NCBI GenBank assembly: GCA_964016885.1
Contig: OZ024745.1
Location: forward strand, 66,092,001 to 66,156,000
Reading direction: 5' to 3'
Length of the DNA: 64,000 bases
From: Eledone cirrhosa
Taxonomy: Eukaryota
Shown piece by piece: positions 38,467 to 60,453 of the stretch. Every line of letters begins with the position of its first letter. The stretch's first letter is position 1. Below the pieces are notes generated by a model, which saw only the letters and a program-made list of their open reading frames with translations, searched no databases and was not told where the DNA came from. The translations under genes were made by a program, and so were the position numbers.

Positions 38467-39058
38467 GGGCACTACAAAGCTATTAGCTGTCAGTGGAAGC
38501 AGCCGATGAAAGCAGGCGAAGGTGACGTCACTCGTCATACATCGTTTATTTCCGTTTTACTACCACGCGTAAGTGGAGTTTTTACGCGTTTTTTAGAGAT
38601 AGAGGGGGGGGGGGGGGGGAGGGAAGACTTAAAAGGGCCAAATTAGAAAACAAATACAAAAAGCAAATAGAAAACAAGTCATGGTTATAAAGCATATCGA
38701 TGTAAGTGGAGTTTCTAATTAACTTAAATTTTTTTTCTAATTTGGCCCTTTTAAGGGCCACCTATATTTTCATTTAAGTAACTCCACTTACATCGATATG
38801 CTTTATAACCATGACTTGTTTTCTATTTGTTTTTTCTATTTGTTTTCTAATTTGGCCCTTTTAAGTCTTCCCCCCTCTCTCTCCTCTTCCCCCTCTCTCT
38901 CTCTCTCTCTTCCCCCCCCTCTCTATCTCTAAAAAACGCGTGAAAACTCCACTTACGCATCGTAGTAAAACGGAAATAAACGATGTTTGACGAGTGACGT
39001 CATCTTCGCCTGCTTTCATCGGCTGCTTCCACTGACAGCTAATAGCGTTGTAGTGCCC
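38467..39058. mobile_element. Foldback MITE with very long TIRs (Mutator-like)
   Basis: GGGCACTACAA...TTGTAGTGCCC termini; arms about 250 bp and highly similar; 8-bp TSD TCTTTTTG/TTTTTTTG. Confidence 0.9.
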
Positions 39059-45007: not shown

Positions 45008-47850
45008 TATCCAGCCGGATCAGTTGGAGATGGTTGCTTCTGGCAGTTAGATTAGACTCGATGGGTTTTAGTAAATAATTAGTGTTAGATAAAAATAAGA
45101 CCGAAAAGGAACTGGTAGATAAAGTAGAAGAGGGACTTAGGAGTGGCAACGTAGCCAGCGTGCTAGCGGCGAGAACGGCCTTAGACTAGTTCTTCGACGC
45201 AAAGCATGAAGGCTGCGTTGTCAGAAGCAAAATACGTGTTCTGGGAAACGAGGGAGCGAAAGCTGTTAGCTGGGCCCGAGTGACGGAGGCGATAGTGACA
45301 ACAAGTCCACGATTCGGTCTTTGAAGGACCAAGACGGACGCGTGATACGTGAGCCGAAGCAGATGTACGCGGCCTTTCAGCGGCACTTTGCTCAACTGTT
45401 CGGGCAGGGCGGCGCGCTGGGAGTGGTTATGGATTCGGTCCATACCTCGACGGCCTACCACGACTCTCAGACAGCGAGGCGAAGTTCTGCGAAAGGCCTT
45501 TTTAGGCCGCTGAGATAGGGGACTCGCTGAGCCAATGCGGCAAACGAAAATCTCCAGGTCACGACGGTCTACCCTACGAATTTTACGTAGCAATGCCGGA
45601 CTTGTTCTCCGGTCTCCTGGAAGCGGTCTACTGCAACTGGCGGCAGAACGGTAGAATTCCCAGTTCTGTGACCAAGGGCGTAATCACGTTAGTCAGGAAG
45701 GACGAGAACAAGGGGGATGACATAGGAAACTTCGGCCCATAACTCTGCTCAACACAGAGTTACAGATTTTGGCCAAGCTGTTGGCAAAGAGGCTGGCGCT
45801 TGTCGTCGAAAACCTGGTGGGAGAAGCGCAGACATGCGCAATCCCGACCAGGTCCATACACGACAACCTCCACCTCATGCGGTACATCATAGAGAGGGTA
45901 GGGTGTAAACCCGGCTTCGGTGGGGCCCTGATCAACTTGAATCAGTCTAAGGCTTTCGATAGGGTTGACTATCGTTACCTGGATGCGGTGCTCGAGGAGG
46001 TAAGCTTCGGTCCCGTGTTCAGGGGCTGGATTGCTGCAATGCACAACAGCAACATCTGCTCAAGGGTCAAGGTGAACGGCTAACCTCGGAGCCGTTCCAT
46101 ATCACCCGATCCATCCAACAGGGATGCCCTCTCTCCTCCCTTCTCTACGTATTGACTCTCGAGCCACTACTGCAGAAGTTGGAGCGATTGCAGGGCATCC
46201 CTTTGCAACCGGGACTGCGGAAAGCGGCGTCAGCCAACACCGACGACGTAACAGTAATGGTGTCGAGCACCTCGCAAATCGGGGAGATCGGCACCTTACT
46301 GGAGGAATACGAAAGGTTCACAGGAGAGAAGCTAAACCGGGACAAATCCGTCGGTTTGCAACTCGGAATGTGGAGAGGCAAACCGATGCCTTCCGATGAC
46401 GTCGTCGGACGCTGGACGGAAGGACCGGTAAAGCTGCTCGAGGTCTGGTTTGGTCCTGACCTCCAGGTGGAGAAGAACTGGAACGAGGTGACGGCCAAGT
46501 GTTTGCGCTCACCCAGAAGTGGGCCGAGTGCAAACTATCCTTGAAAGTTCGAGCAGAGGTGGCGAACACTTTTATAGCGTCCGTCATCTACTACCGCTTG
46601 ACCGTTGTGCCTTGTCCAGCCAAAACGCTCACCAAAATGGAGTGCGCGCTCTTCCAATTCCTTTGGAAGAAACGGGCTCCTTTAGTGAGAAGATCCATCT
46701 GCTGCCAACACCCTTCAAACGGAGGGCTGGGTATGCCGTGGCTGACGATGCGCAAACACGCACTCAGGCTGCGGCACCTCCACGTATTCCCCACCAGACA
46801 ACCGGTGTGGGCCCCGTTCGTGAGGCGAGCCTTCGCACGACTCGTCTCGCTGACCGAGCTGCAGTCCTGAGTCAAGCAAAGACCGAGGAAAATGAGCGAC
46901 TGGCACATCGAATGTGCTCAGGCGCTCACAGTCCCCTGGCAAACGGACCCGGCGGTCAGTGGAGACTCCACTTCGATATTCTATAGAGGGTTGGTCCGCA
47001 GCAAGTGCGACGACACGCTCGGAGAAACTCTAGGCGTAGAGGAGAACGAACTGGCCAGTCTGTTCGGTAGGACCTTCCGCCCGGGACCAATGGACAACTT
47101 CCAAAAGTCCCTGGCCTGGCAGTGCTACTGAGGAGCTCTATCCGTTCGAGACAAGCTCTACAGAGACGGGCGCCCGGGTAGAGACCCTTCGAAAAAGATC
47201 TGTCCGAGATGCGTGCGCGACGAGGAAACCGTCGCACACGCATTTGTACACTGCCCGGGTCTTACCTACCTGTGGGCTATGTAGAACGACTATTGTCGCG
47301 GGTGGGACCAATCCAGTTGACTACCGAGTCCATTGTCATGATCAAACCGCAACGCTCCTTCAAAAACGGGGGTGAGGCGGTTTTCATATGTGTTATGGCT
47401 ATGGTGAAAGAGGTCATATGGTGGACGAGGTTAAAAGTGCTGAGGTCTGACACCTTTCTCTCCGGCGAGCAACTGATTCGTTTTTTCAAATATCATTTTG
47501 GAAGAAGAATCAGGGTGGAGAGAGAGGTGCTGTACCCCAGCAAATTTTATAAAAGGTGGGTGAATGTGGCAAAGATGGCCCGAGTGGTTGGGCCTTCTCT
47601 CTATATAAGCCTGTAGGTTGAGGAAAAATAGGAAGAGGGGAAAGGAGTACTCACTCTTGGTGCTCCTGGAGATGAAGGTTGTACATTTTTTCGGGGTGTG
47701 TACAACCCCTGTGTAACACCTCCCCCCTATTGGGGATTTCAATTGTTATTTGTTATTGTATTAATAGTATTATTTTCATATACCTGTATGTAAACTCCTC
47801 ATTTGTATTTGTCCTCTTCTTTTGTGCCCTTGTGTCTAATAAAGAAATGT
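45008..47850 (+). mobile_element. Tx1-clade LINE, 5'-truncated ORF2 pseudogene, in (TA)n
   Basis: RPITLLNTELQILAK, INLNQSKAFDRV, QGCPLS, NTDDVT, GGLGMP and CCHC knuckle CPRCVRDEETVAHAFVHCP; 3'UTR with AATAAA; visibly GC-richer than its flanks. Confidence 0.92.
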
Positions 47851-47921
47851 ATATATATATATATACTACCTTGATTAAATCTTAACCATCTAACATCTCA
47901 GGGTATGTCATGTATCATTTT

Positions 47922-47987
47922 ATTTTATCTGATGAGGACGTACTGTTGAACCTGATTCAAGTACCTCTGAAATATGTATAATAAAAT
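47922..47987 (+). ncRNA. Minimal type I hammerhead ribozyme
   Basis: Stem I ATTTTAT/ATAAAAT, CTGATGA 47929-47935, extended stem II, GAAA 47969-47972, short stem III TATGTA, UH = TA (47979-47980). Confidence 0.75.
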
Positions 47988-48021
47988 TTAATTGATCACA
48001 AGAACATCTATTTTATTAATA

Positions 48022-48026
<5 letters not shown>

Positions 48027-48076
<50 letters not shown>

Positions 48077-48098
48077 TCATCATCATCATCATCATCAC
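48027..48098. repeat. (TA)n followed by the (CAT)n RTE tail
   Basis: Direct reading. Confidence 0.95.
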
Positions 48099-51000
48099 CG
48101 TTTTACGTCCGTTCTTCCACGCTAGCATGGGTTAGACGAGTCGTCCTGTTGTGGGCAGTGTCTGGTCGGCTGACCATGCCTTGCTCATACAGGAACTGAT
48201 TTGGCTTGATTTCTACAGCTGGATGCCCTTCCTAACACCAACCTCACTTACAGTGAGTGCTGGGTGCTTTTTCGTGGCGCCTACACGTCCACTTTAGAGT
48301 GTGGGCTGGGTGCTTTTTTTCCGTGGCACCTCCACGGCCACCTTGCAGTGGGAGGGTGTGGGGGAATGTTCTCTATATGCTTCAGCTTGTACCCATGGGA
48401 GGTCGGGTACTCTGTATTACTGCGTGACGCCAGAGGTCACGGTCGTGTGTCATCGCCTTTGAGAGGTGTAATTGTGTAAGGTCGGCTTTTATCACCTCAT
48501 CCCAGGTCATCTTGGGTCTCCCCACTCCGCGGTTTCCATCGACTTCTAGTGCTCAGCACCTTTTTATGCAGCTGTCATCCTTCATACGCATCACATGTAC
48601 ATACCAACGCAACCGCCTCTCCTGCACACAGCATTTGATTCCTCTTATCCTCAGTCTCTCTCTCAATTCATTTATGCTTTGTCCATCAGAGCATGCAGGC
48701 TTCGTTTTTCTCTAATCTACGTAAGTTTTCCACCTTCAGCGCCCAGTTCTCACTACCATGTAACATTGCTGTTCGGATACACGCATCATACAGTCTGCCT
48801 TTCATTTTGAGGGAGAAGGCTTTTGCAGCTAGCAGTGGCAGTAGTTCCCTGAACTTCTTCCATCCCGTTCTTACCCTAGTTATTGTACTTTCTGAACACC
48901 CACCTCTCCGCTGCTAATTCGGTCACCTAGGTAGCAGAAGCTGTCTACTCTCTCTACAGAGCCCTCCAAGAGATTGGTGGTACTTGTTTTCTGCGGCTGT
49001 TTGCTGCTTGCTGTCCCAGTACAGCTGCTGCATCTGAAGACTACATTCTTAATTAAGCTTCCTGAGATCCCGCTACATCTCTTGTGTACCCATTGTTTGC
49101 ATTTGGGGCAGAGAATGGAGTTCCTACCTACACCTTTCCTACATACTGAGCAAGGCTATTTCCTTGAGGGATCTGGGTTCTGTTTTCTCGTCTACTTACA
49201 AGGACCTTAGTCTTTGTCATGTTGACTTTGAGACCCTTTCTTTCTAGTCCCTGCTTCCAAGTTTGGAATTTCTTCTCTAGTTCTACCATAGATTCAGCTA
49301 TAAGTGCGAGGTCATCAGCATACAGGAGTTCCCATGGGCATCCGGTCTTCAACTCCTCCGTTATTGCCTGCAGGTCTATGATGAACAGGAGAGGGCTAAG
49401 AACAGAGCCCTGGTGGACACCAACCTGTACGCTAAATTCCTCGCTATACTCATTGCTAATCCTAACTTTGTTGACTGCTCCCCTATACATGGCTTGTACA
49501 GCTTTCACAAGCCATTCATCTACTCCTAGTTTTCTAAGAGCCCACCAAATTAGAGCACGTGGAACTCTGTCAAAGACTTTCTCGAGATCGACGAATGCCA
49601 GGTAGAGTGGCTTACTTTTAGCTAGGTACTTTTCCTGTAACTGCCTCACAAGGAAGAGCGCATCAGTGGTACCTCTTCCTGGTACAAACCCAAATTGCAT
49701 CTCATCTCGTTTCACCCGGTCCCTAATCAACTGTGCTATAACTCTTTCTGTTACTTTCATGACCTGGTCCATCAGCTTTATCCCTCTATAGTTTCCTCTA
49801 TCGAGTGCATTACCTTTACCTTTGTAGCAGTTGACAATGATGCTACTGCACCAATCTTTTGGTATGACACCTTCTAGTATTACCTAGTTAACAATACGTG
49901 TGGTTATAGTGTGACCTACAGACCCAGATGCCTTCAGCATCTCGGCAGCTATATCCGATGGACCGGTTGCCTTCCCCATCTTCATATCTTTGATTGCCCT
50001 ACTTACTACGCTGCTGCTGACTTGTACTGCTGGCCCCTCTATAGGGTCTACTTGGGGTAGGGTCTCTTCTTCCCATGCGTTCTCCTCATTTAGTAATCTA
50101 TCATAATGACTCTTCCAAGCATCTTTCTTCTCAGCACTTGTGAGGGCAAGCTAACCTTTATCATTCCGGATACACTTCTCGCCAATGACATCTCAATTCT
50201 CTCTGACACACTGCCTCGCAATCTTGAACACCTCCTGTTTCTGGTCCTCACGTTGCAAAACATGCTTGAATTTTCTATCCTCTGCTTCCCTCCTAGCTAA
50301 GTATAGTTATCGCCTAGCTTCCCTCTTGGTCTCTATGTAATGTACCCTGCTCCCCCCATTCTTCCATTCTTTCCATTCCTGTCTCTTGGCCTTAACTGCC
50401 TCATCTACCTTATTGTTCCACCACCAAGTCACTCTCATCCTGTTTGTGGTCTTGCTCCAGCCACAGACCTCATCCGTCACCTCTAGTAAGTTATTTTTCA
50501 GGAACTCCCAGTGCTCTTCTACATTGAATGTCTCTATCTGTTCTTCTCTACTGTCGTAGGCGTTGAGTAAAATATCTTTAAATCTGTTACTGGCTGAGGG
50601 GTCTTTCAGCTTCCAGATCTTTCTTCTCCAGGTTGGCCTCTGTTTCCAGGTTCGTCTAGTTCTGACCGTGAGGTCGCTGACAACTAAGCTTTGTTGGGAG
50701 GTACATTCCTCACTAGGGAAAGCTTTTGTGTTTACGACCGTCCATCTGTCACGTCCTCTGATGAGGATAAAATCTATCTGACTAGAATGCTCCCCTGATC
50801 TATAGGTGATCAGGTGGTTGTCGTGTTTTTTAAAGTTTGTGTTACATATCGACATGTCATTGGCGTCGCAGAATTCTAGAAGTCTGAATCCTTCTTCATT
50901 TCTTGTGCCAACCCCATGGCCTCCATGGACTCTATTGAAGCCGTCACAGTGTTTACCTACGTGTCCGTTAAAATCTCCTGCGATGATTAGGAAGTGATTG

Positions 51001-51305
51001 TCGTTTGTTAGAGCAGTAGTGTGCATTAGGGACTCGTAAAATCTATCCTTAAGTTCGTCTGGCAACGCCGATTGGGGTGCGTAAGCTGATATTATTGTGG
51101 TAATTGTTTTATTCAGGACTAGTCTGAGTTTAATGATTCTTGCATTTACCCTGTACACTGAGATTACTTTATCTACACACTTGTCAGCCAGTAGTATACC
51201 TACACCACCCATCCCATCGTCATTTCCCACCCAGAAAAAAATTGTAGCACTGACTTTTTCCTACAAGGACTCTAGCAGACTCTCCTCTCCATCTAGTCTG
51301 TTGCA
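48074..51305 (-). mobile_element. RTE LINE (family A), EN+RT, relatively young
   Basis: APE ORF 50307-51230 (SAYAPQ, GDFNGHVG, SQIDFIL); RT ORF 49128-49772 (AFVDLEK, HQGSVLSP, LLYADDL); long 3'UTR and (ATG)n tail. Confidence 0.95.
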
Positions 51306-56394: not shown

Positions 56395-57457
56395 TTATTC
56401 AGGTTTGAGGTTCACCACTGTATAGAGCTGGTCTATTCCGTATGGTCAATCGTAATGCAATAATATAGAGAGTACTCAACGTAAAGCAGTTCAACCGTCT
56501 TAGTTTTTATAGTTGGTGGTGCTATTACGGAGTTAAATATTATAATGAAATGACAGGAGGCTGGATTTGTGTAAATCCTTGAAAGGTTTATTATACTATG
56601 ATCATTTCAATGACCGGGTTCCGTATGAATCCGGTGATATCATCAGGTATTCGAAATATAATACGTGAATGTAATAGGTAAAATCCATGGGGCTGAAAAT
56701 CGAGACCCGAGGGCGACCGCTATTCTGTTCCTTCAACCTCAGCCGGTCGCCCTGGAGTGACGTGGCTAAATTTTATAGTATGCTACTACCGGTCAGATGA
56801 ACGAAAACAGAAAGGGATGGCAGCATAGGTTAACGTCGATCCCATGACACAAGGTAAAAGAAAGAAAGAAAGGAAGGAGAAGAAGGGGGAAGAAAGAAGA
56901 AGAGAAGTCAGGGTTAATGTCAGCTAAAAGGGGAAGGCAACTACTACTGGTCAGATATAGGCAAGCAAGAGGGGGAAGGAAGATAAGTCTGCGGGAGGAG
57001 GGGAGGAGAGAAGGAAGGGAAGAGAGAAGTAGAAAAGTAAGGGTTGATGGCTACAAGAAGGAAGATAGAAAGGAAGAGGAAGAAAGGTCGATATTAATGT
57101 CAGACCACAGTCAAGCCAGGAGTGGCGCGAGAAAATTTTCACAGGGACCCGCATCTTAGCGGAGATGAATATATTGGGAGTCAGTGTTTTACAGTGTTTA
57201 GACTTCTAGGATGAAGTTAAAAAAAATTAATAATCAATATTCAATATTAAAGAGGTTAGAAAATTTAAAGTTCAACAGTTTAACATTTAATTATATAATA
57301 GTTCCGATTTGTTCTGTAATTTAAAGGTACTATTTGGCGGTTAAAACAACGGCCGCGCCCCGGGCCCCATGGCGGATTAAGCCACGCCGAGTATTTTCAT
57401 TTACTGAAAGAAGGGGAAATTTAATTGTTTTAACGTTGTTACGGCGTTGGGGTGTCA
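56395..57457 (-). mobile_element. Non-coding PLE pLTR/3'UTR-like unit with hammerhead
   Basis: Pyrimidine-rich tract, GC hairpin 56710-56753, hammerhead 56593-56650; ends in (TA)n. Confidence 0.55.
56593..56650 (-). ncRNA. Minimal type I hammerhead ribozyme
   Basis: atac-CTGATGA-tatcaccggattc-atacg-gaacccggtcatt-GAAA-TGATCA-TA-gtat; palindromic stem III. Confidence 0.7.
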
Positions 57458-57559
57458 GGCGTTGAGTGCCTTGCGTTCGAGGTTGTCCATATAAGAGATC
57501 GCTAGCACACCTGATAGGCTTGATCCCATGGGCAATCCCGAGGTTTTTTGGTATATTTC
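57458..57559 (-). pseudogene. Inverted fragment of PLE RT (QxxGxPMGS motif)
   Basis: Minus strand reads EIYQKTSGLPMGSSLSGVLAISYMDNLERKALNA. Confidence 0.85.
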
Positions 57560-58439
57560 CCAAGACACGGCGAACAGAATCTATGAGACGTTCAACAACA
57601 CGGACGAGAACATTGACTTCAGTGTTGAACACCCCAACGAAGACGGGTCACTTGTCCTCCTCGACTTCCGAATCAACATCACGGAACAGGGAAGGATCCA
57701 CTGCAACTTCTACCGAAAGGCAGCCTGCAGGGACATGTTCGTTCACTACAAGTCCGCCCTCCCTAACAGTGCCAAAAGAGGATACATCACGAACGAGATC
57801 GCGCGAATCAAAAACAGATGCAGCGATCCCGCCAGTGGTGTCACTCATACCAAGCGATTCCTCGAGGTGCTGGAGACGAACGAGTACCCTACCTCGATCA
57901 CAGACAGAATAGGAGACACCAGACACAAGAGACAGAGGGGCACCCAAGGCAAGTGCTTCCTTAAAATGCCATACCTGGGCGAGAATACCACCAACGTTAT
58001 CCGCAAGGCTATACGGAGGGAGGGCCTCGACATACACCTGGCCCACTCAGGCCCCTCCCTGCGAAGATGCCTCTCCAGGAAACCCGGGAAATCTACTGAC
58101 GCATACTCCCTCAGAGATTGCCCGATACGCCATGCGAACTGTTGCCTACGCACATACGTCGTGTATAAGATAGAATGTGACAGGTGCAACCAATACTACA
58201 TAGGTAGCACAATCCGACCTTTGCACATCCGGATCAAGGAACACACTAAAACCAGGGCCTCGTCTTTCCGGAAACACATAGACAAATGCGGAAACAAAGA
58301 CGGAAGGCCCATTGTCACAATTCTAGCGACTGAAAGAAACGTCGGCACGTTACGTATCAAGGAAGCGCTTTTTATCAAACGCCTGCAACCGCAAATAAAC
58401 AACCGATCAGAGAGAAGCGAAATGAGATGGCTGGTTTAA
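57560..58439 (+). CDS. Penelope-like element ORF C-terminal half: RT thumb plus GIY-YIG endonuclease (5'-truncated, probably non-functional)
   Basis: FNNTDENIDFSVE, LLDFRI, FYRK, S.LPNSAKRG; VVYKIECDRCNQYYIGST.RPL..RIKEH; IKEALFIKRLQPQINNR; about 290 codons without a stop. Confidence 0.9.
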
Positions 58440-59109: not shown

Positions 59110-59112
<3 letters not shown>

Positions 59113-59199
59113 GAGGTTATATTTACTATCCAGGAAGCAACAACCATTAAGGCTGTCTTTTTTCCGGGTATGTCAATATTTATTTATAAAACAAATCTG

Positions 59200-59266
59200 T
59201 ATTTTATCTGATGAAAGCGCACCATAATTTGCCTTGGTTGCCCTTGAATATATATATCATAAAATA
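59200..59266 (+). ncRNA. Type I hammerhead motif with a damaged GAAA box
   Basis: Stem I TATTTTAT/ATAAAATA, CTGATGA 59208-59214, stem II AAGCGCACCA/TGGTTGCCCTT, GAA(T)A-TATATA-TC. Confidence 0.6.
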
Positions 59267-59309
59267 AATATGGTTTTATAATTATAGTTTCCATTTATTA
59301 ATATATTGT

Positions 59310-60160
59310 ATATATATATATATGTTTGTGTATATGTATGTGTGTGTGTATGTATATGTTTATTATATTTATATATGGTTATATGTATGTGTTTACGTAT
59401 ATGTGTGTGTATGCGTATGTATATATGGGTTATTATGTGTGTATGGATTTACGTATGAGTTTTTTGTATGCGTGTGTTGATTTCTTATTACGTACGTGTA
59501 TGCGCACGCATTTATATACGTATGTACGTAGGTTATGAACCATTGCTCTTTATTGTAGGCTTTTATGTGTATGTGGATGTGTGTGTATATGGTTGTATGT
59601 ATGTTTATATATATACGTGTGTATGTGTATATGTATTTTTGCACGCATGTGGATGTGTGTGTGTACGTATGTTTATTTTATATTTTTGTGTGTGTATATA
59701 TAATATATATATATATATATACATACACATACATATGTGTGTGTGTTTTTATACGTGTGTATGAGTATTTATGCTTGTATATGTGTGTGTGCGTGTGTAG
59801 GTATGTATGTATATATATATTTATGGATATGCCCATCTCGTGTATTTGTTTATTTTTAAGTTTTTTCCCCTCCCCCACACATTCATACTTATCGTTGTCA
59901 ACATGTCTCCTTTTTGTCTTTATTTTGTTTTTGACTTTGTATTTTTTGTTCTTATTCATTTATTTATTTATTCCTACTAATTCATGTATTTGTATGTGTA
60001 TGTATTTATGTCCCTGTCCGTATGTCTATGTAGACGCAAATACGCTTATGTGAAAAGTATACGTCTACGTATGTTTTAAGTATATGCGCGTGATTGAGTG
60101 TGTGTATGTTTACGTTCTGGATATGTATTGTTTATATATATATATATATATTTTTATATA
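59310..60160. repeat. Long degenerate (TG/TA)n low-complexity tract
   Basis: Direct reading. Confidence 0.85.
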
Positions 60161-60253
60161 TTCTTTTTCCCCTGTTTTTTTCTCAGCCTCACTTTCATAT
60201 TTCTTAAATTTTGTTTTCAAATCCATATTTAATAAAAACACCATGTTTTTTTA

Positions 60254-60311
60254 TTCATTCTGACGACTGAAAACAGATACATCTGCTTTCAAGAAACCAC
60301 TGGTAAATGAA
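60254..60311 (+). ncRNA. Type I hammerhead ribozyme
   Basis: TTCATT-CTGACGA-stem II-GAAA-CCACTGG-TA-AATGAA; all core nucleotides present, first stem II pair mismatched (C.A). Confidence 0.72.
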
Positions 60312-60407
60312 ATAATTATCTTATGTTGTTTATTACATAACTAATAAGCTCTGTAGCCTACATAGAGCACTCTTTTTTCCTGTACCTTCCCGACCGAAAT
60401 ACTTCAC

Positions 60408-60453
<46 letters not shown>

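Follow-up and report, generated by a model that had tools for sequence, protein, structure and literature searches.

The Hydra clade of Penelope-like elements (PLEs) is defined by the RWK, DKT, CxCx5C, CxxC and CxH motifs, hammerhead ribozymes and (TA)n targets (PMC8557442). The sole octopus family in the supplement to that paper, Hydra-1_Obim from Octopus bimaculoides (Craig et al. 2021, PMC8557442), has a single ORF for a reverse transcriptase (RT) with a C-terminal GIY-YIG domain, a hammerhead near the 3' end and a (TA)n target. The minimal PLE hammerheads are of type I, with a small palindromic helix III; they are described mostly as single dispersed motifs ascribed to truncated PLEs, with head-to-head pairs 100–700 bp apart, and the published motifs have low activity, as dimers only (Cervera and de la Pena 2014, PMC4209133). 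Non-LTR retrozymes are short non-coding units with a type I hammerhead, kin to PLE pseudo-LTRs (PMC7229834; Li et al. 2026, 10.64898/2026.07.22.740005), and are arranged in head-to-tail tandems giving circular RNA (Cervera and de la Pena 2020). For Poseidon PAc of Anolis carolinensis, in vitro experiments demonstrated that RT initiates at two internal sites, which define the tail, together with extension of both strands, the use of uncleaved RNA as a substrate and an AT-rich target (Frangieh et al. 2024, PMC11167929). Whether the template of PLEs is the sense or the antisense RNA was left open in one paper (PMC3846280). In L1, an extra G at the junctions of full-length insertions marks copying of the mRNA cap (PMC11702581).

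The window, that is, the whole analysed stretch of 64,000 nucleotides from Eledone cirrhosa, contains at 47865–48026 (+) a unit which is almost certainly the terminal pseudo-LTR segment of a Hydra-clade PLE of about 4.25 kb, encoding RT and GIY-YIG and residing in a TA repeat. The unit is a short copy of the ribozyme end of this element and has likely arisen by copying uncut RNA up to its capped 5' end. Positions in the element are counted from C3 of the hammerhead core (0, window 47929), so that window 47865 is −64. The unit extends from the common start at −64 to the short class of 3' ends, its own 3' end at about +95 falling a few bases short of the usual one. It is preceded by a (TA)8 target tract at 47850–47865 (+) and followed by a (TA)24 target tract at 48027–48074 (+). 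The last A of the former doubles as the first base of the element: the A at 47865, common to the tract and the unit, is the probable 5' terminus. The first seven nucleotides, ACTACCT (47865–47871, +), form the putative transcription start; longer copies read TC-ACTACC, which is Initiator-like. Of the first-pass annotation, which had described a stand-alone unit of about 160 bp bounded by TA on both sides, the size and both flanks stand; the 5' base is moved to 47865 and the stand-alone status is abandoned.

A complete type I hammerhead motif can be read directly from the sequence at 47922–47987 of the window, all features being on the forward strand. In stem I, ATTTTAT (47922–47928) pairs with ATAAAAT (47981–47987) over 7 bp. 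The core CTGATGA (CUGAUGA in RNA) at 47929–47935 is followed by stem II of 33 nt (47936–47968), GAAA (47969–47972), the palindromic stem III TATGTA (47973–47978), self-complementary with two G-U pairs, and, directly after it, UA (U 47979, A 47980), with the predicted cut after 47980. Hence the intact type I hammerhead between TA tracts, proposed from the letters of the window, is confirmed with every part in place, and the constituents of the minimal PLE type, that is, the CUGANGA/GAAA/UH core and three stems, are all present.

Scores computed on the window are rather low. An Rfam scan of the window yielded no hammerhead family at E ≤ 5; a bare hammerhead descriptor produced 21 matches in the window against 11.5 ± 6.3 in shuffled sequences, i.e. 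no enrichment; and the hammerhead fold is weak (z = −0.99). For stem III, intramolecular closure has a cost of about 3.5 kcal/mol and the two-molecule (dimer) duplex a weak −2.2 kcal/mol, which agrees with the weak, dimer-type PLE hammerheads described earlier (PMC4209133). The evidence that places the motif above chance is not these statistics, but the genomic matches of its 30-nt core and the covariation in stem II. The core has 130 exact matches in the genome and none for the reversed control. The first-pass reading of a minimal hammerhead of the PLE type, dispersed and palindromic in stem III, is supported. For covariation we considered 26 related variants, hand-picked from 83 with a selection pattern that included stem I. 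Six of the seven stem II pairs differ on both sides, 97.4% of cells pair whereas slid controls drop to 31–60%, and the stem III palindrome survives an AU-to-GC change in four of the 26 rows. The anticipated stem covariation is present for stem II, across sister families. Stem I shows one-sided changes only and, since it was part of the selection pattern, is little informative.

Comparison of the unit with the 3.0-Gb source genome produced 1008 candidates, the 40 best-scored of them 98–100% identical, and in 13 of the first 30 loci the shared sequence extends upstream of the unit. The element consists of the RT/GIY-YIG ORF, an AT-rich 3' UTR of about 1.7 kb and the 160-bp unit; at loci L043/L044, L080, L137 and L139 one continuous sequence links the start codon, RT, GIY-YIG, the 3' UTR and the unit, in this order. 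Full-length copies have a part of the unit in front of the ORF as well, as a 5' leader, and the 105-nt "tail" behind the unit is the leader immediately before the ATG (L043, L080). Such duplication of the unit, together with a leader-derived tail, corresponds to the pseudo-LTR layout of PLEs (PMC8557442). With respect to membership in the PLEs that carry an endonuclease (EN+), a single ORF with PLE RT and C-terminal GIY-YIG is linked to the unit, and the pseudo-LTR, the inverted 5' copy and the optional tail at one end are all observed. The suggested dependence on a PLE RT/GIY-YIG protein is upheld, whereas the existence of an independent non-autonomous family is not: the same 160 bp end the coding 4.25-kb PLE, and short and long copies are mixed.

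None of the copies read has an intact ORF; the longest open frame, 750 aa, belongs to a sister subfamily. Pfam applied to the ORF pieces gives a weak GIY-YIG match (E = 3.5e-4) and no RT match. Out of 8000 scored candidates, 189 are homologues of the family protein, the best of them with about 35% identity over 95% of the length; one of the matches is from an argonaut. The protein features RMRWRA, DKTNN, CNCRNKPDC, CALC and CLH, and no CCHH motif is seen on reading it. These five motifs match the published marks of the Hydra clade, and hence, with RTs compared by eye, the family is assigned to it; an initial assignment to the Neptune clade was replaced following the published definition (PMC8557442). 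The element shares with Hydra-1_Obim the single RT and C-terminal GIY-YIG ORF, the RWK-like, DKT, CxCx5C, CxxC and CxH motifs, the hammerhead near the 3' end and the (TA)n target, and its RT motifs match the published alignment by eye, but it is a different family with its own hammerhead and flanks. While the described Hydra elements are mostly shorter than 3 kb, this one reaches 4.25 kb owing to the 3' UTR; further differences are its clear pseudo-LTRs and inverted arms and a tail of about 105 nt rather than 30–40 (PMC8557442). The family is new, but its clade, ribozyme and target have all been described, and the element structure, the ribozyme, the TA target and the inverted arms all belong to already known PLE biology. 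The copies L043 and L044 (G000:C2, 4.2 Mb apart), and likewise L058 and L059, are nearly identical including the flanks, which may be due to either segmental or assembly duplication.

Within the window, DNA shared with the 4.25-kb element is confined to 47865–48042. A decayed non-LTR retrotransposon lies immediately upstream of the unit (45186–47849, +, the start being approximate), identified by an RVT_1 match (E = 1.2e-6), ORFs and 3' ends; judging from its motifs, we take it to be L1/Tx1-like. It terminates in AATAAAGAAA. We considered the possibility that the 5' TA tract is the tail of this LINE and rejected it, as among 20 copies only three, including the one in the window, end in TA, and most end in (TCTA)n-like repeats. 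On the other side, a presumably RTE-like LINE on the reverse strand (48073–51260, RVT_1 E = 7.4e-31) abuts the 3' TA tract with its (GAT)n tail. The 3' half of another, GC-richer PLE with an open GIY-YIG frame is situated at 57495–58439 (+; Pfam GIY-YIG, E = 9.3e-5), with an (AC)-rich stretch 3' of it. This PLE, 10 kb away and called young in the first-pass annotation, is unrelated to the Hydra family; its protein has only 14/45 identities with the family ORF (E = 0.013) and no DNA is shared there, and it was rejected as a partner. An Rfam Histone3 stem-loop at the gathering score (34 bits, E = 4.7e-6) is found at 38739–38783 (+).

We then mapped 99 distinct contexts, out of the 130 exact matches of the 30-nt core, on one real copy. 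By their 3' ends the copies form two classes, short (49 copies, near +111) and long (46 copies, near +221), with four others, and both end sites are TA-like within the element itself. A (TA)n tract follows the 3' end in 90 of the 99 copies, compared to 3.1% of random window positions, so that the TA-flank enrichment expected from the single unit is evident among these copies. Contigs from three runs on one sample of unspecified kind, which inform on neither starts nor expression, cover a part of a full-length copy with loose TA ends at both 3' sites. Different hammerhead families are nested in the same TA tracts at L004, L012, L069, L095, L105, L132 and L179, and hence TA microsatellites seem to be common landing sites.

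An inverted arm is present on the 5' side in 68 of the 99 copies, and neighbouring copies stand head-to-head. Among the inverted structures reaching a terminus, 49 of 51 join one short and one long end, although a pair can be counted from both its arms. The hammerhead cut was considered as a source of the 5' ends and rejected, as only one of 53 inverted-arm ends is situated at the cleavage site. Given that the hammerhead is intact, this indicates that cleavage does not shape the template.

To see how the two classes relate, consider the tree of short and long copies (123 rows, ambiguous rows excluded). It is poorly resolved, with 33 short/long label changes against 40 in shuffles (1 and 8 of 500 shuffles were as low). 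The slight clustering is partly due to paired arms. At that, the starred branches alone force at least ten changes, three sets of identical rows span both groups, and every subfamily contains an intermingled set of short and long copies. Such mixing agrees better with copies arising again and again from full-length masters than with a lineage of their own.

The 5' ends are concentrated in a narrow region: 52 of 97 mapped ends fall within −71..−53. The −63 region is retained in 104 copies. The match runs on upstream in 53 of them and ends after only a few further bases in 12; the other 39 are junctions, and of these 35 keep the A at −64. This A sits in an Initiator-like TCACT, and an Inr-like TCACT was noted in the pseudo-LTR of a rotifer PLE (PMC3846280). 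Several distant sister families retain the sequence CACTAYC 5' of their hammerhead. The base preceding the 23-mer that starts at −64 is the native C in 1306 genomic matches, G in 209 and A or T in 409; the native base is missing in at least 618 of the 1924 exact matches. T is the commonest non-native base and may originate from the target or from a palindrome, while A accounts for 14 of the first 100 listed.

Neither the element nor the TA target has this G. Each of the 30 G copies examined, which come from several subfamilies, is a junction with no upstream continuation. A loose test allows the G to be taken from the inverted arm in up to 18 of the 30. In arm-free copies with ATAT followed by one non-T base (n = 29), this base is G in 16, C in 8 and A in 5 cases; in those with a true, clean TA tract (n = 20) the counts are 14, 4 and 2. 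The window copy has no extra G and belongs to the G-less class (14 such copies with the longer pattern). Since the extra G in L1 marks a copied cap, by analogy the short units are likely to be run-off cDNAs extending to the capped 5' end. A limited search, with subscription papers outside its scope, yielded no report of cap-derived G or run-off copies in PLEs, nor was this combination of a start site and a cap signature found in print.

We consider the following mechanism to be probable. Transcription would start at the A of TCACT (−64, window 47865), as suggested by the DNA junctions, and produce capped sense RNA. The GIY-YIG domain would nick the (TA)n target, and RT would initiate inside the leader, at +111 or +221, reading through the intact hammerhead of the uncleaved sense RNA and arriving at the cap after 175 or 285 nt. 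Addition of C opposite the cap would leave the extra G at the junction. One cDNA joined to the target would yield a solo unit, as in the window; if another cDNA, initiated at the alternative site, were joined to it head-to-head, the result would be an inverted pair that has a single tail. The solo unit probably represents a dead end, and cleavage by the hammerhead would be only weak, in a dimer or with the help of the protein. Two internal start sites defining the tail, extension of both strands, uncleaved RNA and an AT-rich target are common to this scheme and Poseidon PAc. The start sites here, however, are in the non-coding leader, TA-like, and could pair with the target, whereas those of PAc are in the ORF and non-homologous to the cut DNA, and run-off to the cap is not among the features of PAc considered here (PMC11167929).

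Several observations do not favour this mechanism. The start and the cap are read from DNA junctions only, the window copy lacks the G, T is the commonest non-native base, the arm could account for the G in at most 18 of 30 copies, the tree shows slight clustering, the ORFs are broken and the stem III duplex is weak. Moreover, a 7-bp inverted repeat at −70..−51, in the top 1.5% among cDNA end hairpins, predicts ends near −70 to −74. It suggests a rather unlikely, but the most serious, alternative, in which the element is the same, priming takes place at the 3' pseudo-LTR and the short copies result from ordinary 5' truncation of the cDNA, with RT stalling or folding back at the hairpin, the G being non-templated or derived from the arm. 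PLEs typically show both 5' truncation and palindromic junctions (PMC8557442, PMC3846280), and the hairpin can explain some fold-back junctions, perfect ones being observed in several copies (L028, L101, L109); hairpins as a general cause of the breakpoints at −460, −541, −381 and −1053 were not supported. However, the start is exact to one base in 35 of 39 cases and is six bases off the hairpin prediction, G follows clean TA tracts where no arm is available (14/20), and the sister families keep CACTAYC rather than the hairpin, the sister unit at 59.1 kb starting at the same A. The copies resemble the published minimal PLE hammerheads in the type I fold with a small palindromic helix III, in being mostly single and dispersed or head-to-head, and, as far as can be judged from sequence, in low, dimer-dependent activity; the difference is that the single motifs here share one exact start, which argues for a defined origin and not for random truncation.

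The fixed start and ends, the abundance of copies lacking the native upstream base (at least 618 of 1924) and the mild clustering of labels on the tree could also be produced by a SINE-like non-autonomous derivative with its own transcription from −64, which the PLE protein would copy anew. Chlamydomonas is known to have non-autonomous derivatives of PLEs (PMC8557442). This explanation is improbable: every junction is different, the short copies of each subfamily lie nested among its long ones, and, if the analogy with anole holds, the protein would need ORF sequence downstream of the priming site (PMC11167929), which the short copies do not have. Finally, the unit had been proposed as a candidate retrozyme, in which hammerhead repeats arranged in tandem give rise to circular RNA by processing. 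Its type I hammerhead, non-coding character, low GC content and size near the 150–450 bp range (PMC7229834) are those of non-LTR retrozymes, but the copies here are solo or head-to-head, not a single one of the 99 forms complete head-to-tail monomers, and same-strand repeats are limited to partial slips of 65 and 81 bp, without the second ribozyme half, in two of the 99. As the unit also belongs to a coding PLE, the retrozyme reading is largely refuted and retains hardly any probability. The two exceptions, L047 and L073, contain three- and four-fold 65- and 81-bp repeats of only the first half of the hammerhead and might possibly be raw material for tandem forms.

Returning to the run-off copying of capped RNA, the junction pattern carries more weight than the element itself, as it bears on how PLEs make pseudo-LTRs, tails and inverted arms. 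The one-base start and the extra G in hundreds of copies lead to a sharp prediction, a capped start at the A of TCACT and an uncleaved sense template. Solo hammerheads of such size should not be counted as retrozyme monomers. With somewhat less assurance, we favour a more general view, that the solo and head-to-head hammerhead units of animal genomes are a regular "strong-stop" by-product of PLEs with a cap-derived G. The genome would then record the start, settle the choice between sense and antisense templates, and explain inverted pseudo-LTRs as two cDNAs from two internal sites.

An unusual junction was observed at L106 (G000:C10:17553780-17556945), which contains several tandem 10-nt words from the first bases of the unit, as if RT had slipped repeatedly at the template end.

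The window contains three more hammerhead-related units. The short unit of the sister family (59110–59310, +) lies between TA tracts and has a damaged core (GAAT); a 17-nt inverted tail end comes first, after which the unit starts at the A of CACTAYC, the motif described above. Another type I motif, TTCATT / CTGACGA / GAAA CCACTGG TA / AATGAA, is seen at 60180–60410 (+); this unit ends in (TA)18 and has relatives in L009, L023 and L188. The third hammerhead-like core, CTGATGA ... GAAA TGATCA TA, is located on the reverse strand (56400–56650); its stem I is poor, and the unit terminates at a TA-rich tract at 56398.
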